64,000 bases of DNA from Escherichia phage CMSTMSU, in the sequence record MH494197.1, one strand, 5' to 3'. Each line of letters begins with the position of its first letter. The stretch's first letter is position 1. The position numbers and the translations under genes were made by a program. The notes below the pieces were generated by a model. That model was not told the DNA's origin and ran no database searches. It was given only the letters and a program-made list of their open reading frames with translations. This document shows positions 42,720 to 62,945 of the stretch, in pieces.

Positions 42720-42958
42720 ATGTTACCTTTTGTAAGAATGGTTAAGTACGGGAATATTGCACCAGTACCGAAAAAATAAAGAAAGTTATAGCAGGATATG
42801 ATAATTTATATGTACTATATGGTGATGGTTCGCTATATGGTTGTGGAATCAATAACTATCAACAGTTAAATATTGATGGAACTGCTACACAAAATAATTG
42901 GGTACTAATTACCAATGGTGTTAGTAATGCATGGGCTGGTGGATACAATATTTTATAT

Positions 42959-43645
42959 TTGAAAGAAGATAAATTTATAATGCACGGAACTAATGTCTCA
43001 TTAGGTTTAGGAAATACTACAATTCCATTAGGTGGAGTAGATGTAACTTCTTCATTCCCAGATATCTCTAATATTAAAATGATATCCATTGGTTTTGATT
43101 CAATGCACTATGTTAGTGCTGATGGTACAACTGTATATGGAAGAGGTATGAACACAAATGGTTCTGTTGGTTCAGGTAGTACTTACTCACAGAGTACTTT
43201 CACTTCAGTACTGAATAATGGAACTAATCAGGTTATTGATATATTTGGTAACGTTAATAATACAGTGCTTCTAACATCGAATGGTGAGCTTCGAGCATGT
43301 GGGACAAGTGCTTATGGTTCTATAGGAAATGAAACTGGTAAGTGGACATCGTTTGGTTTAAAATTATCTGGCACTAAAATAATGGGTGGTAATGGGTATA
43401 GTACGCTTGCATATACAAATTCGGGAATGTACCACTCAGGGTGGCAGTTAAATGGGGAACTAGGAAATGGTTTAGATACTAACGTACAGGTATATCCATT
43501 TCAATTTAACTCTAAAACGATAGATAGCAAGATAGATAAAATTGCCAAATCATCATCTGGGTCATATGTTAACATGTACTCAACAACAGAAGGAAAGATA
43601 TATACGACAGGTTCGTTTGGTAAAACGGGTCAACTACTGCATTGA
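42959..43645 (+). CDS. RCC1-like repeat protein, unit 1 body (leader ATG at 42720 in another frame)
   Basis: Leader MLPFVRMVKYGNIAPVPKK stops at an A6 homopolymer; body has GxNxxGxLGxG-type repeats. Confidence 0.5.
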   Translation: MKEDKFIMHGTNVSLGLGNTTIPLGGVDVTSSFPDISNIKMISIGFDSMHYVSADGTTVYGRGMNTNGSVGSGSTYSQSTFTSVLNNGTNQVIDIFGNVNNTVLLTSNGELRACGTSAYGSIGNETGKWTSFGLKLSGTKIMGGNGYSTLAYTNSGMYHSGWQLNGELGNGLDTNVQVYPFQFNSKTIDSKIDKIAKSSSGSYVNMYSTTEGKIYTTGSFGKTGQLLH

Positions 43646-43866
43646 ATTTGTTCACCAATACATTAACACTTATAAATTACAATCCAGATACCGCCTCGTT
43701 GTATACGTGCACAAACTTCAGTGTTGTGTATGATGGTAATGAAACTATTGCTGTAAGTGGTAGTCCTACATATGTACCGAGGGCGTTGCCGCTAATAGAT
43801 GGACTACAATTCCATTACCCAAGTAATACTATGCCAGTACTTGATGCTGGCTTTTCTTTTGATTAA
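43642..43866 (+). CDS. RCC1-like unit 1 C-terminal fragment
   Basis: Frame continues through the terminator hairpin, so probably frame-disrupted. Confidence 0.35.
   Translation: MNLFTNTLTLINYNPDTASLYTCTNFSVVYDGNETIAVSGSPTYVPRALPLIDGLQFHYPSNTMPVLDAGFSFD
43833..43860 (+). terminator. rho-independent terminator
   Basis: GCCAGTActtgaTGCTGGC hairpin + TTTTCTTTT. Confidence 0.6.
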
Positions 43867-43893
43867 ATATAGTATAATGAATAAGGAGGAATT

Positions 43894-44286
43894 ATGTTAC
43901 CTTTTGTTAGAATGTTTGATTATGGGAATATAATCGAAGTTAATAATATAAAGAAAAGTGTTGTTAGTTACACTCTTGAAATGTTTCTAATGCAAGATGG
44001 CACTGTATATGCACACGGTGAAGATTCAAACTATAATGCGGGTTTAAGTACACAGTTTGTATCGTTAGGAGCAGTTCAACAAATCACAACTGAAGTTGAT
44101 GACTTATGGTTAGGATCGTTTTCCGTTGTTATTAAAGGTGATAAAATATATGGTTCAGGTTCAACATATGCATTCACGAATTCTAATACTTTCCAACAAG
44201 GATATACTGACTGGGCTGTGTATTTCACTGGTATAGATGTTACCCAAATTAAAAAATGTTATGTGGTTATACAGCATTTATATTAA
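43894..44286 (+). CDS. RCC1-like repeat protein, unit 2 N-part with conserved leader
   Basis: TATAAT-AAGGAGG-ATG cassette; MLPFVRMFDYGN. Confidence 0.5.
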   Translation: MLPFVRMFDYGNIIEVNNIKKSVVSYTLEMFLMQDGTVYAHGEDSNYNAGLSTQFVSLGAVQQITTEVDDLWLGSFSVVIKGDKIYGSGSTYAFTNSNTFQQGYTDWAVYFTGIDVTQIKKCYVVIQHLY

Positions 44287-44795
44287 TGAAAGACGGAACA
44301 CTTTATGGAAGAGGATGGAATCGAAGTGGTACATTAGGTTTAGGACATAAAAATTATGTTTCAGCGTGGACTGTACTTGACACTAATGTGGATAATATAT
44401 TTGGCGGTTACCTTGGCGATACATTGTTTAAGATTAAAAACGATGGAACTGTATATGGTTCAGGTTCAAATAACAGCTTTCAAGTTAAAGCAACATCGGG
44501 TGATGCAACCACATTTGTTCCGTTGTTTGATGATATATCTTATGATATAAAATGCAGTTTTGTTTCTGGTGTTGGTTTTGTAATGATAACATCTGATAAT
44601 AAAATATATGCAACTGGAACTACTTTTGCTGGTAGTGGTGCACATAGTAAAGTTTTTGATGTTGGTTTTACTATAGGTGATATGAGTAATATATATCATC
44701 CTGATTCGTTGGACTATTCGACTAGTGTTGTATTTTTAATTAATGCAGATACAAACAAACTAATAGCAACTGGGCATACCCATTTACGGAAGTAG
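44256..44795 (+). CDS. RCC1-like repeat protein, unit 2 body
   Basis: YGRGWNRSGTLGLG and similar repeats. Confidence 0.5.
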   Translation: MLCGYTAFILMKDGTLYGRGWNRSGTLGLGHKNYVSAWTVLDTNVDNIFGGYLGDTLFKIKNDGTVYGSGSNNSFQVKATSGDATTFVPLFDDISYDIKCSFVSGVGFVMITSDNKIYATGTTFAGSGAHSKVFDVGFTIGDMSNIYHPDSLDYSTSVVFLINADTNKLIATGHTHLRK

Positions 44796-45024
44796 TTCAA
44801 GTTCCTTCCATATTTTACAGCATTTCAAGAATTCAATTTTACATCGTTCAATTCGAATACACGATATAGTGGGTCTTTATACTGGAATACATTTTACGAA
44901 GGTAATAATGTATGGATGAATGGATATAATCCTGAAAATACGGGTGGAAAGAATTTCTCATTGTGTTCAATACCGTTAGATACTATTATTACTAAGCAAA
45001 TTGATTTACCTTTTTGAATACTAT

Positions 45025-45053
45025 GCCAGTACTCAAGTACTGGCTTTTATTTT
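45025..45053 (+). terminator. rho-independent terminator
   Basis: GCCAGTACtcaaGTACTGGC + TTTTATTTT. Confidence 0.6.
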
Positions 45054-45087
45054 ATTAAATATAGTATAATGAATAAAGGAGGGAAAT

Positions 45088-45606
45088 ATGTTACCTTTTG
45101 CAAGAATGGTTAAGTACGGGAATAAACAGCCTATTCCTGAACCAGTTGAGTTCACTGATGTTTTACAGCAACATTATACTAATGCTATGTATCTACATAA
45201 GCCCACGAATACACTATACGGTTATGGTGGTAATAACTTGAGCCAATTAGGTCTAGGGAATCAATCGACAGTTTCTACTTTTACAGTACTGGCAACGCAC
45301 TGTGCAGCCTTTTGGTTAGGCGTTCATGGCTCATTGATGATTGACTTGGATAATAGAATATATTTCACAGGGAATACAGTAGCATTCCCCGATTATGGAG
45401 ATGCAACTCCAGTTAATGGTTATTTTAGAACATGGACTGATGTTACTGCCGCATTTGACAAAATAAATGTACACGCTAATTTAATCAAGAGTGTACATAT
45501 AGGTGAAAGTACTAGAATATTACTACACGATGGAAGAGTAGTTGTTTGTGGTAAAATGCAAATGCCGAATGTGGAACAGGTAACCAAAATCCCATACCAG
45601 TACTAA
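45088..45606 (+). CDS. RCC1-like repeat protein, unit 3 N-part with leader
   Basis: MLPFARMVKYGN; YGYGGNNLSQLGLGN. Confidence 0.5.
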   Translation: MLPFARMVKYGNKQPIPEPVEFTDVLQQHYTNAMYLHKPTNTLYGYGGNNLSQLGLGNQSTVSTFTVLATHCAAFWLGVHGSLMIDLDNRIYFTGNTVAFPDYGDATPVNGYFRTWTDVTAAFDKINVHANLIKSVHIGESTRILLHDGRVVVCGKMQMPNVEQVTKIPYQY

Positions 45607-45784
45607 CAGTTGTTACTGGTATGGGTGAAGTTCTCAATTGGCGTGTTCATTACAGGGTACGCACTATCTCAAAACAAATAAAGAAGCATGGTTTTGTGGT
45701 AAGGATAACTTTGGTGAAAGTGGTGCTGGGACTAGCTCATACGTTTTACTAATAAGTTAATACGATCCAACGTCGATTATATAA

Positions 45785-46273
45785 GTGCTACTTATGATGT
45801 TACGGTGGTTCACTGCCGGTAGGGTGTACTGGAGTGGTAGAAACAATTCTGGACAAGCTGGGAATGGTACTACTTCAACCACAAACCAATTAACTACAGT
45901 TCAGAATTCACAGGTTATAGTGAATATTAGTGATGGTTTCCTGTGTCCTAGTAATATGGGTAACTCAACAATTGGTGCACCTATGGCTCAATACCCATCA
46001 TATGTCAGAGTGCAGGCATCAATACATATGGTCAAGAAGGGACGGAAATACAACAGTAATTACTTCGTGGGGGCGTTTTCTTTAAGTGCGATACAGGGTG
46101 GATATGACAATGTTCTTATGGCATCCAAAGACTGGTCCAGAACAATAATTATAACTAAAGATTATAAATTATATGCATGTGGGGGCTTTAACGGTTCAGG
46201 TGGTAACTTACCGGATGGTACTTCCGTAATTAAAACATTAACATTAATGCCAACGCAGTTATGGCAATCATAG
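45785..46273 (+). CDS. RCC1-like repeat protein, unit 3 C-part
   Basis: WSGRNNSGQAGNG repeat. Confidence 0.45.
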   Translation: MLLMMLRWFTAGRVYWSGRNNSGQAGNGTTSTTNQLTTVQNSQVIVNISDGFLCPSNMGNSTIGAPMAQYPSYVRVQASIHMVKKGRKYNSNYFVGAFSLSAIQGGYDNVLMASKDWSRTIIITKDYKLYACGGFNGSGGNLPDGTSVIKTLTLMPTQLWQS

Positions 46274-46282
46274 GAGAAAATC

Positions 46283-47404
46283 ATGTTACCTTTTGTTAGA
46301 ATGTTTGATTATGGAAATGAAGCACCTGATCCTAGTTCGGGATTTCGAATAATAAGTACAGGAGACGCATTACTATTAATTACTAAGAGTGGTGATTTGT
46401 GGGTGCGTGGTTATAACCGTTATGGCAAGTTAGGTATAGGTAATAACACCACTACCTATGTACTTGATTGGACGAAGGTTAGAAGTGATGTAAAGTTTGC
46501 GTGTGGTAGTGGATTGGTAACAGTTATCTTTACTAAGGGTAATCGCATATTGTACTGTGGTGACAAATGGTTTGAAACGGGTGGTGTTGGTAGTGCACAG
46601 ATTTTCACATGGACAGATGTTACGCACCAATTTGGGGCAGTAGATTTGAGTACAGTAAGGGATATGAAAATGTCTTATTACACGATTGGATTATTGACTA
46701 CTAATAATCAATTATACGCTAAGGGATATGATAATAACCTATCATTTGGTGGGGTTAGTAATAAGGCGACTGCTGTGTTTATTGCGAATAATGTACAAGA
46801 GTTGTATACGAGTTTAGTTAGTACAATCTACGTTGATACAAGTGGTATATTACATCGTTGTGGCATGAGTGATAACGGTTCGTTGGGTAATAATGTTAAT
46901 TTAACTTCGTATCTAAGTTATTCACAGACTGGTATGACGATTAAGGACATTGGAATGATGACTACGAACACTGGGTTATTATATACTGATTCTAGTGCAC
47001 GCACGAGATATTTTATTGCTGGACAGAACTTGAATAAACAGATGGGTAATGCGGCGGCTGCGAGTGCCATTACGAGTACTTACACAGAGCTTTCTGGTAG
47101 TGTTGATAAGTTTTCTTCTTTATGGGCGAATGATGGGATATTGATGACATTTGCTGTGGGTAAGAACACTAATCAGTTATTTTATGCTGGGATGAATACT
47201 TTTCATGCGAGTGGTGGTGTATCTTCATATGCGGATACATATGAGTTAGTCCCGATGGTGTTTAATGACATACAGGAAGTGTTATGTGCACAGCGTTTAT
47301 CGGTGGTACATGATTCTACGAAGTGGTATTACTGTGGTGATGCTAATTCAATGTATGGTTTACCGGACGTAAGTACTTTTACTGAGTTACCGTTGCCCTT
47401 TTAA
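46283..47404 (+). CDS. RCC1-like beta-propeller repeat protein (intact, 373 aa)
   Basis: Leader MLPFVRMFDYGN; about seven ~50-aa repeats (e.g. WVRGYNRYGKLGIGN); stop immediately before a hairpin terminator. Confidence 0.7.
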   Translation: MLPFVRMFDYGNEAPDPSSGFRIISTGDALLLITKSGDLWVRGYNRYGKLGIGNNTTTYVLDWTKVRSDVKFACGSGLVTVIFTKGNRILYCGDKWFETGGVGSAQIFTWTDVTHQFGAVDLSTVRDMKMSYYTIGLLTTNNQLYAKGYDNNLSFGGVSNKATAVFIANNVQELYTSLVSTIYVDTSGILHRCGMSDNGSLGNNVNLTSYLSYSQTGMTIKDIGMMTTNTGLLYTDSSARTRYFIAGQNLNKQMGNAAAASAITSTYTELSGSVDKFSSLWANDGILMTFAVGKNTNQLFYAGMNTFHASGGVSSYADTYELVPMVFNDIQEVLCAQRLSVVHDSTKWYYCGDANSMYGLPDVSTFTELPLPF

Positions 47405-47411
47405 TAATAGG

Positions 47412-47440
47412 TCAGTACTGAAATATGTACTGGTATTTTT
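47412..47440 (+). terminator. rho-independent terminator
   Basis: CAGTACTGaaatatGTACTGG + TATTTTT. Confidence 0.5.
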
Positions 47441-47476
47441 GTAAATACTATATAATTTAATTACGGAGATTTTATT

Positions 47477-48049
47477 ATGTTACCTTTTGTTAGAATGTTT
47501 GATTATGGGAACGTCGTTGAGCGACCTGTGGGTACACGTTATACCTGTAGTGACTATAGTGCGACTTATAGTTTAATAAAGGATGGTGTGTTATATGTAT
47601 CTGGGATGAATAACTATTATCAGTTAGGTAATAACACTAACGTAACACGTTACAACGAGTGGTTAAAAGTTCCAGAGACTGATAGTGTTAAGTTTTGTAG
47701 TACTGGTTATAGTCAGACAATGTATATTACTAACAATGGGAGGATAATGATAGCTGGTGAAGATCCTACTTCCAGTGCGACGGCGGTAAGTGTTAAGGTA
47801 TGGACTGATATAACTTCTAGATTTAGTGCAGTTGATACAAAGAAGATTGTTTATATTTCAATAGAACGCTTTGGTGTAATGATGATCATGCAAGATGGTT
47901 CAGTATGGGCGTGTGGAGTTGATAATACTGGTTGGAGTGGGCAGGAAGTAAAACTGTTGGTTTCTTTACTTTCAGACAAATATACACCGGAAGTGCAGGA
48001 AGTGCAGTTGCTGGTACTGCTGGTACTGGTACTGCGAGAATTCTGTTAG
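47477..48049 (+). CDS. RCC1-like repeat protein, unit 5 N-part with leader
   Basis: MLPFVRMFDYGN; YVSGMNNYYQLGNN. Confidence 0.5.
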   Translation: MLPFVRMFDYGNVVERPVGTRYTCSDYSATYSLIKDGVLYVSGMNNYYQLGNNTNVTRYNEWLKVPETDSVKFCSTGYSQTMYITNNGRIMIAGEDPTSSATAVSVKVWTDITSRFSAVDTKKIVYISIERFGVMMIMQDGSVWACGVDNTGWSGQEVKLLVSLLSDKYTPEVQEVQLLVLLVLVLREFC

Positions 48050-48320
48050 CTAATGGAACAATCTTGTCCGCTGGTACTAATACATATCATCAATGTAATG
48101 CTAGTACTGATCCGGCTGTTCTAACATTCACTGAATCATTCCACGGGTTGATCCTTCATTGATATATCAAATCAAGATGTGTAATAACAACTGTATTATA
48201 TTTTGAGTGATAAGAGATATTACGGTACTGGCTGGGAAGTTTTGGTGCATTGGGTGATGGTGATATTACGGGTTCGAATAATAAATTCTATGCAGGTACA
48301 TTGTCAGTTGCTCCTAAAAC

Positions 48321-48653
48321 ATGCGTGCTTATATGTCGTATCTATGTAGTTCTTCTGGGGATTCTAGTATGTACATAGGCGATGATAATTTCATATACAC
48401 CTGCGGTTATCGTGGGAGGAACTTAATAAATGCCACTACAGATATTGGTACGTTCACGAAATGCATTCAAAGTGCACAAGGATACAAGAATGGACTTATA
48501 TATAGTGGGAATTATTGTGCTGTAGTTTTTGATCCAGATTTGGGTTCAGGAATGTCATATGCGGTTTCATCACCAAAATTGAATGCACCAGCACCACAGG
48601 CGAGTGTTCCAACATTGGGTATGAGTTCGTTACAAGCTATTATTTTACCATAA
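48321..48653 (+). CDS. RCC1-like unit 5 C-terminal fragment
   Basis: Ends just before terminator 48661-48690. Confidence 0.4.
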   Translation: MRAYMSYLCSSSGDSSMYIGDDNFIYTCGYRGRNLINATTDIGTFTKCIQSAQGYKNGLIYSGNYCAVVFDPDLGSGMSYAVSSPKLNAPAPQASVPTLGMSSLQAIILP

Positions 48654-48660
48654 CATTATA

Positions 48661-48690
48661 CCAGTACTGAAATATGTGCTGGTATTTTTT
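48661..48690 (+). terminator. rho-independent terminator
   Basis: CCAGTACtgaaatatGTGCTGG + TATTTTTTT. Confidence 0.5.
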
Positions 48691-48815
48691 TAAATACATT
48701 ATAATTATTATATGGAGATTTTAGTTATGTTACCTTTTGTAAGAATGTTTGATTATGGGAATACAGTGGCTGCTCCCACTGGTATAAAGGATTTCAAGCA
48801 AATGGAAGCCACTGT

Positions 48816-49211
48816 ATGGCACTAACATATAGTGGTGAGATGTGGGCTTATGGTACAAGTACAAGTGGATCAATGGGAACCGGATTCACGGTGGGTGCTG
48901 CTGATAAGGGTTGGTACAAGTCTAACATTAGTAATGTTAAATCATTCAGTTCTAATATGCAGACTAGCACAGTGGCTTTGACAAATGATGATAGAGTGCT
49001 AGTTTGTGGCTCAACTAGATTTGACAAATTCAGTACTCCAGATATTGCATCATCTAACCTTGATTGGTTGGATGTTACTGATCATATTCCACAGGAAGTT
49101 ATTGATGCTGGGATGAAGCAAGTTATTAACCACGTATATTATGTTGCCATTTTACTGAAAACAATCTATTATATAGTGTGGCATTATCTTTGGGTAATAC
49201 TAGTACTATAA
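48816..49211 (+). CDS. RCC1-like repeat protein, unit 6 fragment (leader ATG at 48726)
   Basis: Leader MLPFVRMFDYGNTVAAPTG… terminates early in a different frame. Confidence 0.45.
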   Translation: MALTYSGEMWAYGTSTSGSMGTGFTVGAADKGWYKSNISNVKSFSSNMQTSTVALTNDDRVLVCGSTRFDKFSTPDIASSNLDWLDVTDHIPQEVIDAGMKQVINHVYYVAILLKTIYYIVWHYLWVILVL

Positions 49212-49310
49212 TAGATAGAACATGGAGAAGAAATACATTTGGTGATATACAAGTTGAACGTGTTGTTTCGTTGACACAAACCCCAAGTGGTCCTTTGTGT
49301 ATAGTTCAAG

Positions 49311-50324
49311 ATGCAGACGGATACCAGTATGGTATTGGATATAATGGTAATAAGATTATTGATAATACTTCCACTAATTCATATTCTGTATATACCAAAA
49401 TGGGTACACTTCCTTACAATGAATTTGCCATATCGAATAGCGGGAAATTCAGTTCAGCGGTATTATCAGATGGGAGAAGTGTTTATAGTGGTACATTTCC
49501 AAAGTCATTCAATAATAGTTTTGGTTCATTTTGAAAGTTGGTGCGGTATCAGATACTGTGTTTGGTTTAGATGCAAAAATATGCGTGGTCAATATGGTCA
49601 AAATCAATTACCAATTGCGTCGGCTGATAACAATGCAAGTAATGGCGTTGTGAACCTTCGTAATGTTCCAGCGGGAACACAAACGAAAGACATTCGATTT
49701 ATATGCGGAAATGATGTAAAGAACGTTTATATCATATACACAAATGAAGACGGCATTAGCTCATTTTATGGATTGGGACCAAACTTTGATCAAAATTCCT
49801 CAACATATGCACAATTCGTCAAAGTGGATTTGCGGGGCATTATCAAATTAAGGAGAGAAATATGTTACCTTTTGTTAGATTGTTTGATTATGGGAATATC
49901 ACACGGTCCTAAAAATATAATTAAAGTTGGTGCTTCTACACAGGGTCAATTCTTATTGACAGATTCACATGATTTATATTACATAGGTAGAAATCAAGGT
50001 GGTGAATCTGGAAATGGAAATACCAACACAGTATCCTCATGGATATTAGTAAGTACAGATGTTTCTAATTTTTTCGTGGGTGATCGTACACTTGTTATTA
50101 TTAAAAATGATAATACGATATGGTCATCAGGTCAAACGTACTGGTTCACATCTTCCACAACTACTTCTTACAGTACTGTATTAGTTGATAGAACCAGTTG
50201 GTTTACCAATGCCATACCAGTAAGTGAAATTGCTGATATAGTATGTTCGTATGGTTTAATATTTGTACTTAGCACTAGTTCAGTACTCTATGGTGCAGGG
50301 CTAATGGATATCGTGGTGCTTTAG
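49311..50324 (+). CDS. composite ORF spanning units 6/7 (RCC1-like, frame-disrupted; internal leader ATG at 49862)
   Basis: Internal aaggagagaaatATGttaccttttgttaga leader in another frame. Confidence 0.4.
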   Translation: MQTDTSMVLDIMVIRLLIILPLIHILYIPKWVHFLTMNLPYRIAGNSVQRYYQMGEVFIVVHFQSHSIIVLVHFESWCGIRYCVWFRCKNMRGQYGQNQLPIASADNNASNGVVNLRNVPAGTQTKDIRFICGNDVKNVYIIYTNEDGISSFYGLGPNFDQNSSTYAQFVKVDLRGIIKLRREICYLLLDCLIMGISHGPKNIIKVGASTQGQFLLTDSHDLYYIGRNQGGESGNGNTNTVSSWILVSTDVSNFFVGDRTLVIIKNDNTIWSSGQTYWFTSSTTTSYSTVLVDRTSWFTNAIPVSEIADIVCSYGLIFVLSTSSVLYGAGLMDIVVL

Positions 50325-50966
50325 GTATTGGTTCATCATCAATTTACACATTAACTCAATGTGCTACTAATGTGCGTAAAGTAATGACGAATGCAAATGA
50401 CAGTATGTATATTACATTAGATAATAAGTTATATAGTTCTGGGTGGAATGACCGTGGATTACATGGCACAGGAACAGAACACAAGTTAACATTTGGGGAC
50501 TGCGTAGTTCTGGTGTAATAGATGCAGCTATTGGTGGACATACACTCAATTACTATAATGGTACATCATATTTCACATGTGGTACAACTCCAAACTTTCT
50601 TAGTTCAGATTCAACTACATTCAAAGCAGTTCCTGTAAGTACTTTACCTAATAATTCACCTTTGTTTATGACAAATTCAGAGGCAACAAGCACGGCTACG
50701 CAAATTATATTAACTAGTGCATATCAGAAAGGTATTGGAAACCGTGGTTTGGGATTAAACAATTCTCAAACGGTGCTATCTATAGTGCTGCTAATTTACA
50801 ATTACCTGTAGAAGTTAGTGAGATTAGTGATGTTGCTTTTAGTGACGGATTAACATCATTATTAACCAAAGACGGAATGTATATAGTACTGGATCGTATT
50901 ACGCCATTCCGTGCAAGTGCAGATGTTGCAGTCTTTACTAAAATTGATTTACCAAAATAACATAAT

Positions 50967-50993
50967 GCCAGTACTTGATACTGGCTTTTCTTT
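50967..50993 (+). terminator. rho-independent terminator
   Basis: GCCAGTActtgaTACTGGC + TTTTCTTT. Confidence 0.6.
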
Positions 50994-51028
50994 GGTTAAA
51001 TATAGTATAATGAATAAAGGAGGGAATT
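50994..51028 (+). promoter_or_regulatory. conserved 5' cassette (TAAATATAGTATAATGAATAAAGGAGG) of RCC1 unit 8
   Basis: Identical module upstream of at least 11 units, always between hairpin terminator and ATG. Confidence 0.5.
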
Positions 51029-52198
51029 ATGTTACCTTTTGCAAGAATGGTTAAGTACGGGAATATTGCACCTGTTCGCCCTGAAATAAAGAAATTGGAT
51101 GGTAGTCAATTACATGTCGGATTACTATATAGTACTGGTAATATGTATATGCGTGGTTCTGGTTCGAACTACAAGTTAGGTACAGGTGATGCTAGTGATG
51201 TATTAGATGGTTGGGTACATGTACCCTATGAAGTTGATGATTTTTGGGCGTGTGTGTCCGGTACATTAATAAAGACTAAAGACAATAAGTTATATTGTGC
51301 AGGACTATACATGGGTGGATATTTTGGTGCTAGTGGTTCATATGTTAACTGGACTGAAGTAACTTCATTATTTGTGGGTATTAACGTCTCACAAATAAAG
51401 AATATAGAATTTACATCAGCGAGTACTTCCGGTAGTACACTAATATTGATGTTAGATGGTAGTTTATATGGGTTCGGTATGAACAGTAGGTCGGAGTTAG
51501 GTGTTAATAACAAAGTCGTATCTCCTATTCTTATAGATACTGGGGTAAGTTCAATAGGAGCACATAAATTAGGTGGTTCATCGTTCCATTATATAAAAGA
51601 CGGTAAGTACTACAGATGTGGGACCGCGATTGGTAGTAATATAGGAAGTTCTTCTTTAACTACATTTACTGAATTGAGTATTGCTGATAATGTTATATCT
51701 ATGCAAATATTATTTGACAACGTACAGTTATTATGTTTTGGTAGTACTGGATATAGTATCTATATGGCTGGTTCTAATGATTATGGTGGAAGAGGTGTTG
51801 GTGGTAGTACTGTTTACACTACATTCAGGAAAATAGATCTTACTGGATTTGGTGTTGTTCCCAGTGAAATACTATTTGAAAATGCAGGGAATGGTTATGT
51901 TAATATATCAACTGATAGTACTGGCATATATACATGTGGTGGTGGTGCTGGTGTTAATGGTTTAGGTAGACCGAGTAATGTTATATCAAGTTCACAGTTG
52001 GGTTTGATTGAGTTCAGTACAGGATTATACCCAGCAAATATAAGTCGTGTATTTTCACAGAGTTCATCTTCTGTTATATATTGTATAGTTAATAATGAAT
52101 TGTACTGGGCTGGGAGTAATTCATATTTTACTGATCAAACTACAAATACTGGTACACAATTTTCATTTATTAAGATGAAGGATATGCCTTCTGCTTAG
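51029..52198 (+). CDS. RCC1-like beta-propeller repeat protein (intact, 389 aa)
   Basis: Leader MLPFARMVKYGN; preceded by terminator + TATAAT + AAGGAGG; stop directly before hairpin terminator. Confidence 0.7.
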   Translation: MLPFARMVKYGNIAPVRPEIKKLDGSQLHVGLLYSTGNMYMRGSGSNYKLGTGDASDVLDGWVHVPYEVDDFWACVSGTLIKTKDNKLYCAGLYMGGYFGASGSYVNWTEVTSLFVGINVSQIKNIEFTSASTSGSTLILMLDGSLYGFGMNSRSELGVNNKVVSPILIDTGVSSIGAHKLGGSSFHYIKDGKYYRCGTAIGSNIGSSSLTTFTELSIADNVISMQILFDNVQLLCFGSTGYSIYMAGSNDYGGRGVGGSTVYTTFRKIDLTGFGVVPSEILFENAGNGYVNISTDSTGIYTCGGGAGVNGLGRPSNVISSSQLGLIEFSTGLYPANISRVFSQSSSSVIYCIVNNELYWAGSNSYFTDQTTNTGTQFSFIKMKDMPSA

Positions 52199-54632: not shown

Positions 54633-54660
54633 GCCAGTACTTGATACTGGCTTTTCTTTT
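54633..54660 (+). terminator. rho-independent terminator
   Basis: GCCAGTActtgaTACTGGC + TTTTCTTTT. Confidence 0.6.
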
Positions 54661-54695
54661 GATTAAATATAGTATAATGAATAAAGGAGGGAATT

Positions 54696-55604
54696 ATGTT
54701 ACCTTTTGTTAGAATGTTTGATTATGGGAATATCACACCTGAACCTCTTCAAATTAAGAAAATAATACCAACTGATACTGAGGTTGTTGTACTTTATACC
54801 GACGGTCAACTATACGCACGAGGCAGTAATAGTTATGGGAAGTTTGGTAGAGGAAATAATAATGCAGTAAGGTCGTGGACATTAATTAGAGAAAATGTCA
54901 AAGATTGCTGGATGACACAAGGAACTTTGTTAGTTCAAGATAAGGACTTAAATTATTTTTATTGTGGATATGGTAGTCATATTGGTTTAGAAACTAGTAC
55001 TACATCATTTTTAAGTTATAACCAATATATTGAAAATTTGTACACACAAAGTTCAGGTACTTCAATTAAACAGATGTATGCAGGTACTACTTGGTTTACT
55101 TTCTTAATGGATAATAATACAATATGGAGTACTGGTTGGAGTGGGGCTAGACAATTCGCTGATGGTACTGGTAGTACTCAACAAATAACAGATGGATCAT
55201 TTGTAAAAGCTGTCACGCCTAATGTTGATATTGCACGAATACAGTCAACAAATAGCTGTGTAATGTTTTATGATACACAAAATAATTTATATATTGGTGG
55301 TAGTACATCAGGTATAAGTACTACTGATACATGGACTCCATACAATCAATATACTTTATATCAGCCAAGTACAACATATACAAAAACATTACAATATGTT
55401 GTATGTACAATTGGTGCAGTCAGTGCTTTAGTGGAGAATCCAAGTACAGGAGCACGTCAGTTCCTAGTGGGTGGGAACGCCAATAATGGGGCATGGGGTA
55501 ATAACACTACGTCTAGTACAGCACGAGCAGTATTAGGAAATAATAGTACAACCTTACCACCGTACTTTGTATTCAATTCATACTGGATACCCAGCACAAT
55601 CTAG
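54696..55604 (+). CDS. RCC1-like repeat protein, unit 11 (302 aa fragment)
   Basis: Leader MLPFVRMFDYGN; YARGSNSYGKFGRGN. Confidence 0.55.
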   Translation: MLPFVRMFDYGNITPEPLQIKKIIPTDTEVVVLYTDGQLYARGSNSYGKFGRGNNNAVRSWTLIRENVKDCWMTQGTLLVQDKDLNYFYCGYGSHIGLETSTTSFLSYNQYIENLYTQSSGTSIKQMYAGTTWFTFLMDNNTIWSTGWSGARQFADGTGSTQQITDGSFVKAVTPNVDIARIQSTNSCVMFYDTQNNLYIGGSTSGISTTDTWTPYNQYTLYQPSTTYTKTLQYVVCTIGAVSALVENPSTGARQFLVGGNANNGAWGNNTTSSTARAVLGNNSTTLPPYFVFNSYWIPSTI

Positions 55605-55884
55605 TATACTAGTTACGAGTTCTGGTGTATATGCAACAGGTTTAAATGCGAGTAGTTATGCTGGTTCATTGGGTGTTGGTTCTAATGTTACCATTGGTAA
55701 ATTTACTGCATGTCCATTGCCGTCAGAAATAACATATTCTATGTATGATAAAATAAAAATATATCGAGGGTCGTTACGTACTTTCCTAACTGCTGATATG
55801 AAAAATATATATTCAACCGGAACTTATGATGATGGTGGTCCTAGTACAAATAGATATGTACTGGATACACCTAGACAATTGTAA
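55567..55884 (+). CDS. RCC1-like unit 11 C-terminal fragment
   Basis: Ends before terminator 55889-55916. Confidence 0.45.
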   Translation: MYSIHTGYPAQSSILVTSSGVYATGLNASSYAGSLGVGSNVTIGKFTACPLPSEITYSMYDKIKIYRGSLRTFLTADMKNIYSTGTYDDGGPSTNRYVLDTPRQL

Positions 55885-55888
55885 AAAA

Positions 55889-55916
55889 GCCAGTATCAAG
55901 TACTGGCTTTTCTTTG
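55889..55916 (+). terminator. rho-independent terminator
   Basis: GCCAGTAtcaaGTACTGGC + TTTTCTTT. Confidence 0.6.
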
Positions 55917-55948
55917 TTAAATATAGTATAATGAATAAAGGAGGAATT

Positions 55949-56164
55949 ATGTTACCTTTTGCTAGAATGGTTAAGTACGGGAATAAAATTGAATATAAGC
56001 CACATGGTGAACAATTAATCACGACAATAGGAACAACACAATTTACAGTTCCTGCTGGCGTTACCGAAATATCAGTATGTGTTATTTCGCCGGTGGTCAA
56101 CGTGGTGCTGGCGGCGGCTTATCGTGGCGTAATAATATTCCGGTTTCTGGTGGTGAGTACTTAA
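55949..56164 (+). CDS. leader-bearing N-part of unit 12 (same MLPFARMVKYGN leader, non-RCC1 body)
   Basis: Track ORF 55826 trimmed to the SD-supported ATG; …TTIGTTQFTVPAGVTEISVCVIS. Confidence 0.45.
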   Translation: MLPFARMVKYGNKIEYKPHGEQLITTIGTTQFTVPAGVTEISVCVISPVVNVVLAAAYRGVIIFRFLVVST

Positions 56165-56683
56165 GTGTTTCTCTTACATCCCAACACTACTACAGCAGTT
56201 GAAAACGGTTTATATCGTGGAACTGAAAAACTATGTGTTAGCTTCACTGGTGCATATACGGTTGGTGGACTAGGTGGAAAAGCTGCTAACGCTATTAATG
56301 ATGGTGGTGGTAATGGTGGCAACACTGGTTTAAGTGGTGGTGCAGTCATTGGTGGTGGTGCTGGTGGCTACACTGGTAAAGGTGGTAACGGAAATGCAAT
56401 CACTGGTGAAAATGGTGCTGGGGGCGGCGGTGGTGGTGGTGCATTCTATAATACCTCGTTCATTGGTACGGGTGGTGGTACTGGTATCATTGTTCAAGGT
56501 GCTAATGGTATTGGTGGTAGCTACGATGGTTCATATAATGGTGGTGCTGGTAGTGGTGGTGCTGGTAATAGGTATGGTGGTGGTGGTAGTATATGGGATA
56601 ATTCTTCTTATACGGCGGCTGGTGGTGGTGCTGTGCGAATAATATGGGGACGTGGGAGATATTATCCTAATAATTCAGTCTAA
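56165..56683 (+). CDS. glycine-rich domain protein (C-part of unit 12)
   Basis: Long GGxGGxG tracts (GGGAGGYTGKGGNGNAITGENGAGGGGGGG…); ends at the terminator. Confidence 0.5.
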   Translation: MFLLHPNTTTAVENGLYRGTEKLCVSFTGAYTVGGLGGKAANAINDGGGNGGNTGLSGGAVIGGGAGGYTGKGGNGNAITGENGAGGGGGGGAFYNTSFIGTGGGTGIIVQGANGIGGSYDGSYNGGAGSGGAGNRYGGGGSIWDNSSYTAAGGGAVRIIWGRGRYYPNNSV

Positions 56684-56690
56684 AATATAG

Positions 56691-56716
56691 GCCAGTACTT
56701 GATACTGGCTTTTCTT
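56691..56716 (+). terminator. rho-independent terminator
   Basis: GCCAGTActtgaTACTGGC + TTTTCTTT. Confidence 0.6.
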
Positions 56717-56752
56717 TGAATTAAATATAGTATAATGAATAAAGGAGGAAAT

Positions 56753-57907
56753 ATGTTACCTTTTGTTAGAATGTTTGATTACGGGAATATTGCACCTGAA
56801 GCTCCAAAGATAAAGAAAGTACTGTGCGGTCTTGATAATTTGTACGTCCTCTATGACGATGGCTCACTTTATGGTTGTGGGGTTAATTCGTATTTTCAGT
56901 TAAACGTTACAAATACAGCAACAAGAAATACTTGGATATTAATTTCAGAAGGTGTTACTGATGCATGGGCTGGGGCGTACAATATTCTTTATATCAAGGG
57001 TGAAGAATTCATAATGCATGGAGTTACCACACAATTAGGCACAGGAAATACTATGATTCCGTTGGGTGGTTTGAATGTTACTTCTTCATTTCCACATATA
57101 TCTAATATTAAAATGATATCAATCGGTGCAGATACAATGCACTACGTTGATGCTAGTGGTTCGATTGTTTATGGTAGAGGCATGAATGGTAACTATTCAC
57201 TCGGTGGTGGGTATTCCACGGCTCAGAGTACTTTTGTTTCAGTTATTAATACCGGAGCTAATACAGTCCTTGATATATTGGGTACACAGAATAACACATT
57301 AATATTAACATCAAATGGTGAACTTCTCGGTTGTGGGAGTAGTGAGTATGGCTCACTTGGCGTAAGTCAAGGACAGTATACTACACTAGTAAGCAGGTTA
57401 ACCAGTGTTAAACTGTTTGGTGGTAACAGTACTGGTACTCTTGCTTATTCAGCCAGCAATATATACAACGCAGGTTGGCAGTATGTTGGTCAACTTGGTA
57501 ACGGTATTACAACGAACACACTAGTATATCCATTTGCATTTAACTCCACTACTATTGATAGTAACATACATAAAATATCAAAATCAAGTACATCTTCACG
57601 TGTTAATATGTACGCAACAACCGAAGGAAAGATATATAGTACTGGTGAATTTGGTAGAAATGGTTCTGGTGGTAGTTTGAGTAGATTCACCAATACACTA
57701 ACTTTAGATAATTACAACCCAGAAAAATCAGCATTATACACATGTGCACATTTTAGTATAGTATTTGATGGTAATAATCAAATTTATGCTTGTGGTTCTT
57801 TTTGTATGTGCGTTCTATTACCACGAACTCATGGTCTGCAATTACAATGCCGAAATGATACTATAAAACTATGCCAGTACTTGATGCTGGCATTTCTTTT
57901 GTATTAA
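56753..57907 (+). CDS. RCC1-like beta-propeller repeat protein, unit 13 (near-intact; extreme C-terminus probably frame-disrupted)
   Basis: Track ORF 56735 trimmed to the SD-supported ATG; close paralog of unit 1; ORF reads through the terminator hairpin. Confidence 0.6.
   Translation: MLPFVRMFDYGNIAPEAPKIKKVLCGLDNLYVLYDDGSLYGCGVNSYFQLNVTNTATRNTWILISEGVTDAWAGAYNILYIKGEEFIMHGVTTQLGTGNTMIPLGGLNVTSSFPHISNIKMISIGADTMHYVDASGSIVYGRGMNGNYSLGGGYSTAQSTFVSVINTGANTVLDILGTQNNTLILTSNGELLGCGSSEYGSLGVSQGQYTTLVSRLTSVKLFGGNSTGTLAYSASNIYNAGWQYVGQLGNGITTNTLVYPFAFNSTTIDSNIHKISKSSTSSRVNMYATTEGKIYSTGEFGRNGSGGSLSRFTNTLTLDNYNPEKSALYTCAHFSIVFDGNNQIYACGSFCMCVLLPRTHGLQLQCRNDTIKLCQYLMLAFLLY
57873..57900 (+). terminator. 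rho-independent terminator
   Basis: GCCAGTActtgaTGCTGGC + ATTTCTTTT. Confidence 0.55.
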
Positions 57908-58305
57908 ATATAGTATAATGAATAAAGGAGGAAAATATGTTACCTTTTGCAAGAATGGTTAAGTACGGAAATAAAAGACCATCTAATAATATCAAAAGAT
58001 TTCATGTACAACCAATAACAGTGTTTTGGTGCTCACCGAAAGTGGAGATTTGTATGGTTTTGGATTCAATTCAGGTGGTGAACTTGGCACTGGTGCAAAA
58101 CTAGTGTTACTTCAGTTATTCAAATTGACACTGGAGTTGATGATGTATGGGGTGGTAGTCTATGTGCAATGTACAGAAAAGGCGATGAATTCTTTGGCAG
58201 CGGGACGGTTCTTATTATGGTTCAAGTGCTGTTAACTCAACCACATTTGTAAATGTAACACACATATTCCAAGATATAGATATTCTTAATATTAAGAAAA
58301 TTAAA

Positions 58306-59070
58306 ATGACAACAGGTTTGTTTATATTAATGCAAAACGGCAACTTATATGGATGTGGGGTAAACACCAATTGTCAATTTGGTACTGGTGAGGCAGTGAA
58401 TTTTCGTTATCCTATAGCTACATTAACACAAACGGATGTTGTTGATTTTGATATTTTAGGAAACTCTAGTATAATATTAAAGACCGATGGGTACATGTAC
58501 AGTGCGGGTGATAATGGTCGTGGACAACTTGGTAGTTCTACTGCAACCACACTTCTGGTATATACACAAATTAGTAAATTTCCAAACGTAACCAATTTGG
58601 ATCTGTTCGGACACTCACAAGTTACTTCATTATTCAAAGATAGTGATGGTAAAACGTGGTTGAGTGGTAATAGTTATGGTATTGATTACCCAGTAGTAGC
58701 TACAACATTATTCAGTAAAGAAGCACCAGTACCTGAAGGTACATTTCGTTTTATCAACACAAGGGCAGGGTCAAATACACCAATAATATGTACACCCACT
58801 GGGTATTATGTTGCTGGTACTAACCCTTATGGTGCATATGGTATAGGTACGAATGTAACTCTGACAACATTCACAAGAATGGATTCTATGGATAGATACA
58901 TATCTGATTATAATAATGTTCCTGTTTTCGATGGATGTTTCTATGGGACATATTTTGCAGTTGGGGAACGTCTGTTTGGTGCAGGTAATGGTAATACTGG
59001 TAATGTTCCGGATATACTGGATCACAGCGTAACTATGTGGAAATTAATTATAAAAATAATTAAACCTTAA
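58306..59070 (+). CDS. RCC1-like repeat protein, unit 14 body (leader ATG at 57937)
   Basis: YGCGVNTNCQFGTG, GDNGRGQLGSS repeats. Confidence 0.5.
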   Translation: MTTGLFILMQNGNLYGCGVNTNCQFGTGEAVNFRYPIATLTQTDVVDFDILGNSSIILKTDGYMYSAGDNGRGQLGSSTATTLLVYTQISKFPNVTNLDLFGHSQVTSLFKDSDGKTWLSGNSYGIDYPVVATTLFSKEAPVPEGTFRFINTRAGSNTPIICTPTGYYVAGTNPYGAYGIGTNVTLTTFTRMDSMDRYISDYNNVPVFDGCFYGTYFAVGERLFGAGNGNTGNVPDILDHSVTMWKLIIKIIKP

Positions 59071-59076
59071 TACTAT

Positions 59077-59103
59077 GCCAGTACTTGATACTGGCTTTTC
59101 TTT
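59077..59103 (+). terminator. rho-independent terminator
   Basis: GCCAGTActtgaTACTGGC + TTTTCTTT. Confidence 0.6.
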
Positions 59104-59435
59104 GGTTAAATATAGTATAAAGAATAAAGGAGGGAATTATGTTACCTTTTGCTAGAATGGTTAAGTACGGGAATACTATACCCAAACCCGCTGGTGTGAA
59201 GAAAATTAGTACTTCCATTAATCACGTTGGGATGTTATTCGATAATGGAAATTTATATCTACGTGGGGTGGTGGTGAGTATAAGTTAGGAAATGACAGTA
59301 CTGGATTCGTACAGAATGGTTGGGTTAAGTGTCCATATAGCGTTGCTGATGTTTGGTGCTTCACTTACGCGACAATTATACTTACTACAAGTGGTGAATT
59401 ATACTTAGCTGGACAATTGGGTTATGTTGGTGTAG

Positions 59436-59849
59436 TTGCAGCGAGCGTACGGATGGACTAATATTACATCTAATTTATCCTCAATACCTGCACTTAGTAC
59501 TATACAAAACATAGCTTATACTGAGACTACAATTTACAATGGTGCTATATTAATTTTGTTAAGCAACGGGGACTTATATGGTATAGGTCGTAATGGTGGT
59601 GGTGTATTAGGCGTTTCTGGAATCCAATCAACTGCACTTAAGATTGACACAGGTGTTACTTTAATTGCTGGCACAGACCGTTCAGCGGCGTTACATTATG
59701 TGAAAAATGGTCAATACTACAGATGTGGGAATAATTCTCGCTACAACCTAGGAACAAGCTCTTCTGTTTTATCTACATTTACGGTAAGTACAGATATCAC
59801 AGGAACCGTACTGGGATTGCATGTACTACAAATGCGACTTCAGTACTGA
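59436..59849 (+). CDS. RCC1-like repeat protein, unit 15 fragment (leader ATG at 59139)
   Basis: YGIGRNGGGVLGVSG. Confidence 0.45.
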   Translation: MQRAYGWTNITSNLSSIPALSTIQNIAYTETTIYNGAILILLSNGDLYGIGRNGGGVLGVSGIQSTALKIDTGVTLIAGTDRSAALHYVKNGQYYRCGNNSRYNLGTSSSVLSTFTVSTDITGTVLGLHVLQMRLQY

Positions 59850-59872
59850 CATCATATAATGGTACTATTAGA

Positions 59873-60205
59873 GTGTATAGTGCTGGGACGAATACCGATT
59901 ATACGTTAGGTATTGGTTATGGAGATACCAGTATAATAATGAGTCCATTTAGTGCTACACCTCCAATTTATGGTATTGTACCAGATGCGGCATCACTGAA
60001 TAATTCTTGTATTAATTCTAATATGATTGCGATGACACAGGGTGGTAAATTGTATACATGTGGTAATGGTGTTGCTCTTGGTAGAGAAATCACTGCATCG
60101 ACACCTAGAACGGCGTACTATCCAGTACTATTTGAGGATTCAAATACTGCACTTGATGTTAATGCTTTTGCAGTGCAGGGGGTTCCGGTGTGTTATACGC
60201 ATTAG
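59873..60205 (+). CDS. RCC1-like unit 15 C-terminal fragment
   Basis: Same unit, different frame. Confidence 0.4.
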   Translation: MYSAGTNTDYTLGIGYGDTSIIMSPFSATPPIYGIVPDAASLNNSCINSNMIAMTQGGKLYTCGNGVALGREITASTPRTAYYPVLFEDSNTALDVNAFAVQGVPVCYTH

Positions 60206-60317
60206 TGGGGGCAAATGAGGTTTACTGGTGTGGTAGTGGTTCTATGTTCCGGAACAGAGTGCAGGTACACAACAAGTTAAAATGAAGAAAATGATTTTAC
60301 CAGAATAGGAGGAAAAT

Positions 60318-60773
60318 ATGTTACCTTTTGCAAGAATGGTTAAGTACGGGAATATAAAAGTAAAGAGTACTATCCAAAAAGTTATCCTTGGTGGTGGTGG
60401 TCAATGTGTGGTAACATTACTCAGTGATGGTAGAGTGTATGGACGTGGATACAATACAACATATGGGTTGGGTACTGGTACAACAACATTCGTAAGTGAT
60501 TGGGTATTAATGGGCGATAATATTGTTGATATCCATTCAAATGGTGTTACTGGCACATTCCTTATTACCAAAGAAAATAGAATTTTGTATTCTGGTTTTG
60601 CGACACCAATCAATGGCACAACATCACATTATACACGTTTCACTGATTTAACATCAACTGTATTTGCTGCGGTGGATGTTAGTAATATTAAAACAATTAC
60701 GGGAAATGGTAATGTTACAATGGTTCTTTTGAATGATGGTTCACTTTATGGGAGTGCAAATACAGGGTTATAG
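60318..60773 (+). CDS. RCC1-like repeat protein, unit 16 N-part with leader
   Basis: MLPFARMVKYGN; YGRGYNTTYGLGTG. Confidence 0.5.
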   Translation: MLPFARMVKYGNIKVKSTIQKVILGGGGQCVVTLLSDGRVYGRGYNTTYGLGTGTTTFVSDWVLMGDNIVDIHSNGVTGTFLITKENRILYSGFATPINGTTSHYTRFTDLTSTVFAAVDVSNIKTITGNGNVTMVLLNDGSLYGSANTGL

Positions 60774-60882
60774 GTAATGGTAGTAACGTTGCATTATCAA
60801 CACAAACATATGTGACTAATGATGTGCGTGATGTGAAAACATATCCATCAATGAACACTATAACAAAAATAATAATCAAATA

Positions 60883-61449
60883 TTGGCTAGTGGTATTTTA
60901 TACCAAGGCGTGAACGGTACAAATTCATCAATAAACACGTCTTCATATACATTACTGTACACATTACCGAGTTCTGATTGTTTTCAATTTGCATTTGATA
61001 CATATACATTTGGATATGTTGACCCTAGTACTAACACTTCTTATATAAGAGGTATACCAATAAATGGTTCATTAGGTAATGGCGTTACTAATAATACAGC
61101 AGTTACAACATGGGTTACTAAAGTTTGGAATACACCAATTGATAGTTCTATACCTAATAAATCATATACAACTAACCATGTCTCCTTGTTCAATGATGGA
61201 AACTTATGGACAACTGGTGCATCTAGTGTCGGCTATTCCAATGGTACAAATAGCACAACAGCTAATACATGGACCAGTTCATCTAATTTACCATTCAACA
61301 CTAATAACATAACAGACTATGCTTTTGGTGGTAGTATTACTGTGGTGGTAATCGACTATAGGACTATGTACATACTAGCTAACAACGCCATTGCTGGTAC
61401 TGCTACGACAACTTATAAATTTGAGCCATATAATTCTCCACCAGTTTAA
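60883..61449 (+). CDS. RCC1-like unit 16 C-part
   Basis: Ends right before the bidirectional hairpin at 61456-61474. Confidence 0.45.
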   Translation: MASGILYQGVNGTNSSINTSSYTLLYTLPSSDCFQFAFDTYTFGYVDPSTNTSYIRGIPINGSLGNGVTNNTAVTTWVTKVWNTPIDSSIPNKSYTTNHVSLFNDGNLWTTGASSVGYSNGTNSTTANTWTSSSNLPFNTNNITDYAFGGSITVVVIDYRTMYILANNAIAGTATTTYKFEPYNSPPV

Positions 61450-61455
61450 TATAAT

Positions 61456-61481
61456 GCCAGTACTATGTACTGGCTTTCTTT
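61456..61481 (+). terminator. terminator hairpin between convergent genes
   Basis: GCCAGTACtatGTACTGGC + TTTCTTT; minus gene 61480..61857 ends on the other side. Confidence 0.55.
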
Positions 61482-61857
61482 ACATATTATATAATGTGAA
61501 TGCTGTCACTTTACCAGTTGTTGTTAGTTCATTATAAAGATACTCCAATATTCTCGCACACTCTAAGTATATCTCGATATCATCATGAATAAGTGAGTAC
61601 TGAAATAGCTGTTCTTCAGATAATTTGTATTGACTTCCTTTTAATGAATTGAGAATATCTTTCACATCATCAAGTACTGGGTAAAGTACGAAATCTTCAT
61701 CATATTTTGAAGCAATAAATTCAAATCCACCACCATCAGTACTAGATATACCAATCAGTACTTTATCAACCAAGTTAATGTTTATATAACGGTTGTGATT
61801 TGGGTGAATTGAAATCTCAAACATACGAGTACTGTTACAATCAACATCAATATACAA
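61480..61857 (-). CDS. hypothetical protein, FQ-motif family
   Basis: LSEEQLFQYSLIHDDIEIYL; isolated family member inside the RCC1 array. Confidence 0.5.
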   Translation of the reverse strand: MYIDVDCNSTRMFEISIHPNHNRYININLVDKVLIGISSTDGGGFEFIASKYDEDFVLYPVLDDVKDILNSLKGSQYKLSEEQLFQYSLIHDDIEIYLECARILEYLYNELTTTGKVTAFTLYNM

Positions 61858-61903
61858 ATATACATCGTTGAATTTATAAGTTAAGCAACCGTACTCAAGA
61901 AAA

Positions 61904-62128
61904 TCAGAGCAAATAATTGATGAGTTTTTCTCGTCTCTGCGTAATGCATCTTGATATTCTTTTCACGCATAAGTAATTCGAACTTTGCACTAAACTTGCC
62001 ACCAGTAAGATAATTAGTATTAGGACGTTTGTAACTTGCAACTGGTCGGTGGGATGATGTAAAGTATTTTTTGTGAATCGTTTCTGTTTAGTGAAATATT
62101 CTTGATAGAACTTACTTCTTTTATTCAT
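61904..62128 (-). CDS. hypothetical protein (possibly frame-disrupted)
   Basis: Track ORF co-directional with 61480..61857. Confidence 0.35.
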   Translation of the reverse strand: MNKRSKFYQEYFTKQKRFTKNTLHHPTDQLQVTNVLILIILLVASLVQSSNYLCVKRISRCITQRREKLINYLL

Positions 62129-62342
62129 GAGTACCTCAATTAAATCGCTGTAAAATTGTACATTATAAAATGATTAAATAAAGTATAACACAAGGAGATT
62201 TTATCATGTTACCTTTCGTATTGTTATTTGATTATGGGAACGAAAAACAAGAAAGTTCTTATGATGTTAGTGTATATGGAAACAATAACTACATTTTAAA
62301 TAAACAAACTGGAAACCTTTTTGCATCCGGTGCTGCGCATTC

Positions 62343-62945
62343 ATGGGTGATAACACAGTTAAGTATTATATTACCCAAATAGAATCAAATGTTCATAGCT
62401 GTGAGATAGGTTTCCTATCATCATGGATAATTAAGAAGGACAAAACTGTTTTCATTTTAGGAAACAAAAGCAGTATTGGATTAACTGATTCGACAACATC
62501 ATGGTTCGAAATTACAAACTTATTTTCTGCTGTTCCTGAAATATGGGACAACCTATTTGAATGTAAAGTTCAATTGGGATATAACTGCATACGTGTTATG
62601 ACACCACTAGGATCAATATATGCGATTGGTACAAACACTTATGGTGCATTGGGTACTGGTACTACATCCTCATCCACTTCGTTCGTTAAAAGTGGTGCTG
62701 TGGATGCTGTACGCATGGAATCAACAGAACGTTCAGTGTTCTATCAAAACAGTTCTGGACAATGGTTTGGATGTGGTGATAACACATATGGTATACTAGG
62801 TCTAGGAACTACCGCTAGTCGTGTAAACTCATACACCGCACCAGTATGGACTAATGCAGAAGCTGTTAGCTTCTCTAACCGTGGATCATATACAGCCTCA
62901 ATGGTACTCTATACTCATGTGGTGACAAAGTTAATGGTCAGCTAG
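62343..62945 (+). CDS. RCC1-like repeat protein, unit 17 body (leader ATG at 62208, MLPFVLLFDYGN)
   Basis: YGALGTGTTSS, YGILGLGTTAS repeats. Confidence 0.45.
   Translation: MGDNTVKYYITQIESNVHSCEIGFLSSWIIKKDKTVFILGNKSSIGLTDSTTSWFEITNLFSAVPEIWDNLFECKVQLGYNCIRVMTPLGSIYAIGTNTYGALGTGTTSSSTSFVKSGAVDAVRMESTERSVFYQNSSGQWFGCGDNTYGILGLGTTASRVNSYTAPVWTNAEAVSFSNRGSYTASMVLYTHVVTKLMVS

Follow-up and report, generated by a model that had tools for sequence, protein, structure and literature searches.

Broken reading frames in the RCC1-like gene array of Escherichia phage CMSTMSU point to consensus errors of the assembly

The stretch analysed here (the window) comprises 64,000 nucleotides (nt) of the sequence record of Escherichia phage CMSTMSU (MH494197.1). 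It holds small minus-strand genes from position 1 to about 42.4 kilobases (kb), followed at 42.7-63.3 kb by a plus-strand tandem array of 17 paralogous genes, most of them RCC1-like, and the reading frames of nearly all of the array genes are broken in the record. With a probability that we put at about 0.96, these breaks are artefacts of assembly or basecalling, left in the consensus of a long-read assembly (Oxford Nanopore type) that had not been polished. The error spectrum, its specificity for certain motifs, the absence of the breaks from relatives and the complete recovery of the open reading frames (ORFs) by a repair limited to insertions and deletions (indels) were all observed directly. 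We do not regard the frame disruption as a real feature of the phage's biology, and the RCC1-like array beneath it has been described before in phages of this kind. The underlying phage is an Asteriusvirus jumbo coliphage (121Q/PBECO4/phAPEC6 group), and it most likely carries an intact 17-gene RCC1-like array, as its relatives do. The first-pass annotation had left the choice between indel error and pseudogene formation with possible phase variation; the former is strongly supported by the data below, and the latter branch found no support.

Frame breaks in the array and their intact counterparts

A motif scan with M[LI]PF[AV][RL][ML][FV][DK]YGN (shared opening MLPF[AV]RM[FV][DK]YGN) returned 17 unit starts, which are listed with the other features in Table 1. 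The units were spaced by about 1.13-1.25 kb, the exceptions being the short unit 12 and a gap occupied by the one minus-strand gene that interrupts the array (about 61480-61857). As the first-pass annotation had noticed, only three units read through, at 46283-47404 (373 amino acids, aa), 51029-52198 (389 aa) and 56735-57907 (390 aa). The last of these corresponds to unit 13, in which deletions near the 3' end at 57799 (in a T6 run), 57811 (the CAG of a CCAGG site) and 57896 (in a T5 run) produce a scrambled C-terminus. Truly clean frames were therefore limited to units 4 and 8, and 15 of the 17 units were broken by missing bases.

When the whole window was compared with a phage collection by megablast, it fell entirely within the Asteriusvirus jumbo phages of E. 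coli (121Q, PBECO4, phAPEC6, G17). The closest relatives were Turkey3, WPEC3, WPEC5, fEgEco12 and vB_Ec-M-J, with 94-99% identity over long collinear stretches; no record matched the window exactly. For the alignments, loci of four independently sequenced Asteriusvirus phages were used; the genome of fEgEco12 was obtained by Illumina HiSeq sequencing, with restriction digests as a check (PMC13070987). In WPEC3, Turkey3 and fEgEco12 the orthologous array is made up of 17-18 genes, all intact and 1.1-1.35 kb long, together with a further gene of about 740 nt. The array of vB_Ec-M-J is likewise intact.

The difference can be followed base by base in unit 1, which stops after 19 codons at CCGAAAAAATAA. 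The proposal that one extra A would restore this frame was borne out by the orthologues of WPEC3 and fEgEco12, both of which have an A7 run within intact genes of 1110 nt, whereas A6 was present in none of the fetched loci. Searches of IMG/VR with the sequence of unit 1, in its A6 or its A7 allele, gave no exact match and were uninformative.

Direction and sequence context of the missing bases

An indel was counted as private to the window only where all the relatives covering the position (at least two of the four) agreed against it, and about 53 kb were assessed in this way. The window showed 257 private deletions, 201 of them of a single base, versus 2 private insertions. When the relatives were taken as the query, private deletions and insertions were roughly symmetric, with 12 and 15 in Turkey3, 1 and 3 in fEgEco12, and 17 and 27 in WPEC3. 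The window thus exceeded its relatives in private indels by 6-65 times, essentially in one direction.

The losses depended strongly on homopolymer length. The share of the relatives' runs that were shortened in the window was 0.13% for single bases, 0.28% for runs of two, 1.1% for three, 3.9% for four, 20% for five, 68% for six and 85% for seven, and among runs of equal length those of G/C were more affected than those of A/T. Runs of at least 6 bases were found at 0.44 per kb in the window versus 1.6-2.1 per kb in the relatives' long loci, which span 30-50 kb. Per-site error rates were alike in all three regions of the window. This tabulation against homopolymers of at least 5 bases and the comparison with orthologous regions, both proposed by the first-pass annotation, point alike to assembly error.

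A second context was provided by CCWGG, the Dcm methylation site. None of the 72 such sites of the relatives was intact in the window, 53 having been lost by deletion and 19 by substitution, whereas control pentamers of similar composition were about 80-90% intact. One of the CCTGG deletions lies at 45803, within the array. The window has no CCWGG at all, versus 44.9 +/- 7 in dinucleotide-preserving shuffles, and the long loci of the relatives have 0.6-2.4 per kb. A stereotyped miscall, CCAGG to CCGTG, was found at 8 separate sites among those listed, and multi-base deletions mostly gave back CCAGG or CCTGG once filled. Restriction avoidance was ruled out as the cause of this loss, as the changes are mostly frame-breaking deletions and the relatives retain the sites. 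The distribution of the errors implies that ordinary Dcm 5-methylcytosine would have been present at CCWGG in the packaged DNA.

In an unbiased ranking of the 4-mers and 5-mers hit by deletions, CCAGG, G/C runs and A5 came highest; no further error motif, such as might come from a phage-encoded modification, appeared in this ranking, whose entries either derived from CCWGG or were homopolymers of G/C or A. Contexts containing CCGG were mildly raised (7 of 42), too few to call. The Dam site GATC was also considered as a second error motif and rejected, since 102 of 120 sites were intact, which is the background level; GATC was either unmethylated or handled by the basecaller.

These contexts agree with what is described for Nanopore data. 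According to Wick et al. (2019), about 70% of Nanopore consensus errors in Enterobacteriaceae fall in CCAGG/CCTGG with default models, homopolymer length being the next factor (PMC6591954). The window shares with that signature (Wick, Judd & Holt 2019, Genome Biol 20:129) the focus on Dcm motifs and on homopolymers of at least 3 bases, the dominance of deletions, the frameshifted ORFs throughout an otherwise correct assembly and the origin of the DNA from a Dcm-positive enterobacterial host. It differs in degree, its rates (indels at about 0.5-0.8%, 100% of Dcm sites affected) lying towards the upper limit and suggesting that an outdated basecaller or model was used and polishing omitted.

The breaks would then have arisen as follows. 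The assembly would have been left unpolished, with neither accurate reads nor a methylation-aware model applied. Homopolymers would have been under-called, usually by one base, in A/T runs of 5-7 and G/C runs of 4-5, and the basecaller would have mis-read 5-methylcytosine at CCAGG/CCTGG, either deleting 1-5 bases or producing stereotyped miscalls. At about 3-8 missing-base events per kb, nearly every gene of 1.1 kb would be affected, and this density would be why 75% of the ORFs of the window, and all but two of the array genes, look broken.

Some points weigh against this explanation. The sequencing platform is deduced from the error pattern alone. Outside Dcm sites and runs of at least 3 bases lie 62 of the 257 private deletions, many of which remove one C with T-rich flanks. 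Such deletions match the long-read errors known to depend on context, yet are not diagnostic one by one, and a few may be genuine. The relatives themselves are 1-12% diverged and have 4-44 private indels each, and with such divergence some of the indels of the window, especially the intergenic ones, may be genuine differences. Finally, the per-site rates used below to predict the number of events in the array were estimated partly from the array itself.

The run-length dependence also bears on phase variation, according to which homopolymer tracts in the RCC1-like genes would act as contingency loci, where slipped-strand mispairing would turn individual paralogues on or off. A number of breaks, that of unit 1 among them, do lie in A/T runs of 5-7 where a change of one base reopens the frame, and the family is diverse (21-40% amino-acid identity between paralogues), with some members virion-associated in phAPEC6 (PMC7247149). 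The breaks resemble the phase-variable contingency loci of bacteria and some phages in that one-base homopolymer changes toggle the frame. However, runs were shortened at an equal per-site rate across all regions and genes, nearly all the changes were losses and gains almost never occurred, and about a third of the array breaks lay outside runs of at least 4, with 11 at Dcm sites. The tracts are short (5-7) and scattered within the genes, unlike a typical 5'-end switch, and the four relatives with intact arrays uniformly have the longer allele. Unlike those of contingency loci, the changes in the window are genome-wide, go in one direction, are tied to a methylation motif, are absent from relatives and are confined neither to a family nor to 5' tracts. 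Phase variation as the cause of the breaks is therefore extremely unlikely. It is very unlikely that even a small subset of the array homopolymer frameshifts reflects real heterogeneity in tract length, with slippage switching of virion-associated paralogues beneath the technical noise.

Repair of the reading frames and signs of selection

In the repair test, bases missing with respect to the best orthologue were inserted and all the substitutions of the window itself were retained; for units 2 and 15, additional orthologues were required (vB_Ec-M-J, JP4). After this indel-only repair all 17 units were open, with lengths of 245-397 aa (378 aa for unit 16) and no nonsense codon in about 6,300 codons, and each array break was traced to a specific base missing with respect to the orthologues. 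An apparent stop in unit 12 in the codon-wise calculation was discarded as an artefact of an alignment-tile junction, as direct translation gave 245 aa with no stop. On the minus strand between 1 and 42.4 kb, the summed length of ORFs of at least 60 aa rose from 6,919 to 10,864 aa after repair.

From the window-wide per-site rates, 57 events were predicted in the coding sequences (CDSs) of the array, and 61 were observed. Units 4 and 8 have the fewest susceptible sites and the highest predicted chance of escape among the full-size units.

The ratio of nonsynonymous to synonymous substitution rates (dN/dS), pooled over the array, was 0.29. Over about 1.1 kb, unit 1 differed from its orthologue by one substitution and unit 2 by none, compared with 3 and 4 deletions within their CDSs, proportions that are the reverse of those of sequence evolution.

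These figures speak to genuine pseudogene accumulation, in which frameshifts would have cost the lineage many early genes and the majority of its RCC1-like paralogues. In favour of this, the record as it stands does contain the breaks, redundancy and decay could plausibly occur in tandem paralogue families, and shortened units do exist in relatives, for instance of 948 and 891 nt in Turkey3 and of 795 nt in WPEC3. Nevertheless, the array is not singled out, as 75% of the ORFs of the window are affected, and a phage would probably not survive frameshifts in three quarters of its genes. Decay also agrees poorly with 257 deletions to 2 insertions next to symmetric relatives, with the destruction of 72 out of 72 Dcm sites, mostly by frame-breaking deletions, with the absence of nonsense substitutions, with a dN/dS of 0.29 where relaxed selection would give a value near 1, and with the scarcity of substitutions in the heavily deleted units 1 and 2. 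Inheritance of the breaks also failed as a test, the arrays of WPEC3, Turkey3, fEgEco12 and vB_Ec-M-J being intact, and the 257 private deletions are by construction absent from every covering relative. Pseudogene accumulation is thus highly improbable.

Non-standard decoding was also considered, whereby stop-codon reassignment or programmed frameshifting would give genes the appearance of being broken under code 11. Stop-codon recoding occurs in some large phages, and the window has few long ORFs at 10-40 kb. Dropping TAA, TAG or TGA singly from the set of stops reopened no genes, which refutes reassignment; in the near relatives each of these proteins has one standard frame, and the frame changes fall at bases missing with respect to them. 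The chance that decoding explains the breaks is virtually nil.

Consensus error in the assembly being the preferred explanation, the consequences are mostly practical. Taken at face value, the record would imply mass pseudogenisation or phase variation in the largest paralogue family of a jumbo phage, and uncorrected it would feed about 100 truncated proteins into databases. The assembly should be polished before it is used for gene calls, protein clusters or any evolutionary inference. For other phage or plasmid assemblies from enterobacteria, a triage that needs no reads is offered by the combination of zero CCWGG, few runs of at least 6 bases and deletions far in excess of insertions with respect to relatives.

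The array in the phage group and the rest of the window

Table 1. Features of the window, with positions counted from its first nucleotide.
Feature	Position	Strand	Description
Tandem array	42720..63329	+	17 paralogous genes (16 of RCC1-like beta-propeller type, 1 glycine-rich); motif scan, ORFs, Pfam
Unit starts of the array	42720, 43894, 45088, 46283, 47477, 48727, 49862, 51029, 52266, 53489, 54696, 55949, 56753, 57937, 59139, 60318, 62206	+	motif scan
Unit 1 break	42768..42779	+	CCG-A6-TAA in the window versus A7 and an open 369-aa frame in relatives
Unit 4	46283..47404	+	uninterrupted; CDS without runs of at least 5 or Dcm site
Unit 8	51029..52198	+	uninterrupted; one run of 5, without runs of at least 6, without Dcm site
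Unit 12	55949..56683	+	usual 5' cassette and first 12 codons; glycine-rich body; deletions at 56093 and 56178 break the frame
Unit 13	56753..57907	+	seemingly intact, 390 aa; final ~35 residues out of frame; corrected 369 aa
GNAT acetyltransferase gene	24963..25313	-	three frame segments (tblastn, frames -3/-1/-3); in relatives intact, 357 nt, annotated GNAT / PaiA acetyltransferase
Terminal-repeat-equivalent block	16257..37330		single copy in the window; ~70 small minus-strand ORFs; G+C-richer

Profile searches gave matches on both sides of the curated cut-offs. Corrected unit 1 matched RCC1_2 (PF13540) with 36.6 bits versus a cut-off of 22. Units 4 and 8 matched the RCC1-like domain PF25390 with E-values of 1e-15 and 1e-12, yet under its 150-bit cut-off, and unit 8 was just under that of RCC1 (PF00415), at 21.3 against 21.7. 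E-values for the RCC1-like domain ranged from 1e-12 to 1e-23. In the relatives, the array genes are annotated as 'regulator of chromosome condensation'. Amino-acid identity between units 1 and 13 reached 62%, above the range given for the paralogues of the array. Unit 12, of 245 aa once corrected, has a body of GGxGG repeats and gave no Pfam match in a profile search of the corrected protein; in fEgEco12 and Turkey3 it is kept as a gene of about 738 nt.

Eleven RCC1-like proteins are reported for phAPEC6; of these, two, named 'DNA condensation proteins' and about 40 kDa in size, were detected in its virion proteome, and a role in the organisation of DNA inside the capsid is put forward there as a speculation (PMC7247149). 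The array of the window resembles those of the Asteriusvirus phages (phAPEC6, 121Q, PBECO4, G17, fEgEco12, Turkey3, WPEC3) in its position beside the terminal-repeat region, in its genes of about 370-400 aa and in its RCC1-like Pfam matches, and its units share 88-99% nucleotide identity with their orthologues. It differs in its 15 frame-broken units; with the missing bases put back, it is of the same kind as theirs.

Arrays also vary among the high-quality relatives. The 948- and 891-nt units of Turkey3 lie at 12256-14167 of its locus L003, and in WPEC3 the array includes the 795-nt gene and one of 294 nt (L002, 33495-34648). Unit number and order vary between phages, and for this reason the array is regarded as genuinely dynamic, the breaks of the window still being artefacts.

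A nearly identical 5' cassette was found at the 17 units (window 42640-62256, for example 52186-52316), despite the low identity of the paralogues. It consists of a terminator hairpin GCCAGTACTTGATACTGGC and a T-run, then ATTAAATATAGTATAATGAATAAAGGAGG, which holds a TATAAT-like box and a ribosome-binding site, and then the first 12 codons with the shared opening given above. The same cassette heads the glycine-rich unit 12, which is unrelated to the RCC1-like units. This arrangement suggests a shared promoter and terminator plus a common N-terminal module. Selection or gene conversion would have kept the module, which may be a peptide for targeting or for docking to the virion. A loss of 2-5 bases (TG or TTTTG) recurs within the T-run of the cassette, TTTTTTGATTAAA, at window positions 43860, 45053, 48690, 52232, 53454 and 55915; these losses are intergenic, just upstream of unit starts, and look like one context-specific error at paralogous sites.

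Frame breaks were not limited to the array. At least one frameshifting indel was present in 106 of the 141 corrected ORFs of at least 55 aa in the window (about 75%), and in 47 of 48 corrected ORFs between 16 and 36 kb. The first-pass annotation had described breaks across the window; this holds, and extends to the GNAT gene it had named, but the '19.6-kb gene' that it also listed is not a gene, as every annotated relative has about 70 small minus-strand ORFs in that region. What underlies that reading is probably the block at 16257-37330, the counterpart of the direct terminal repeat of about 21 kb in the relatives. Position 16257 of the window, where the block begins, aligns to the final base of the fEgEco12 record, and the direct terminal repeat of fEgEco12 is 20,993 bp long (PMC13070987). 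The presence of the block in single copy implies an assembly that was collapsed or circularised.

Indel density was 8.5 per kb between 16 and 36 kb versus about 3.2 elsewhere. Poorer data quality in this part was rejected as the cause, since per-site rates were similar to those elsewhere; the density is higher because the region has more Dcm sites and G/C runs.

Between the block and the array, on the minus strand at 39200-42400, the relatives have about 15 tiny paralogous genes of about 180-210 nt, packed in head-to-tail order on the upstream side of the array (for example at 14352-18754 of the WPEC3 locus L002).

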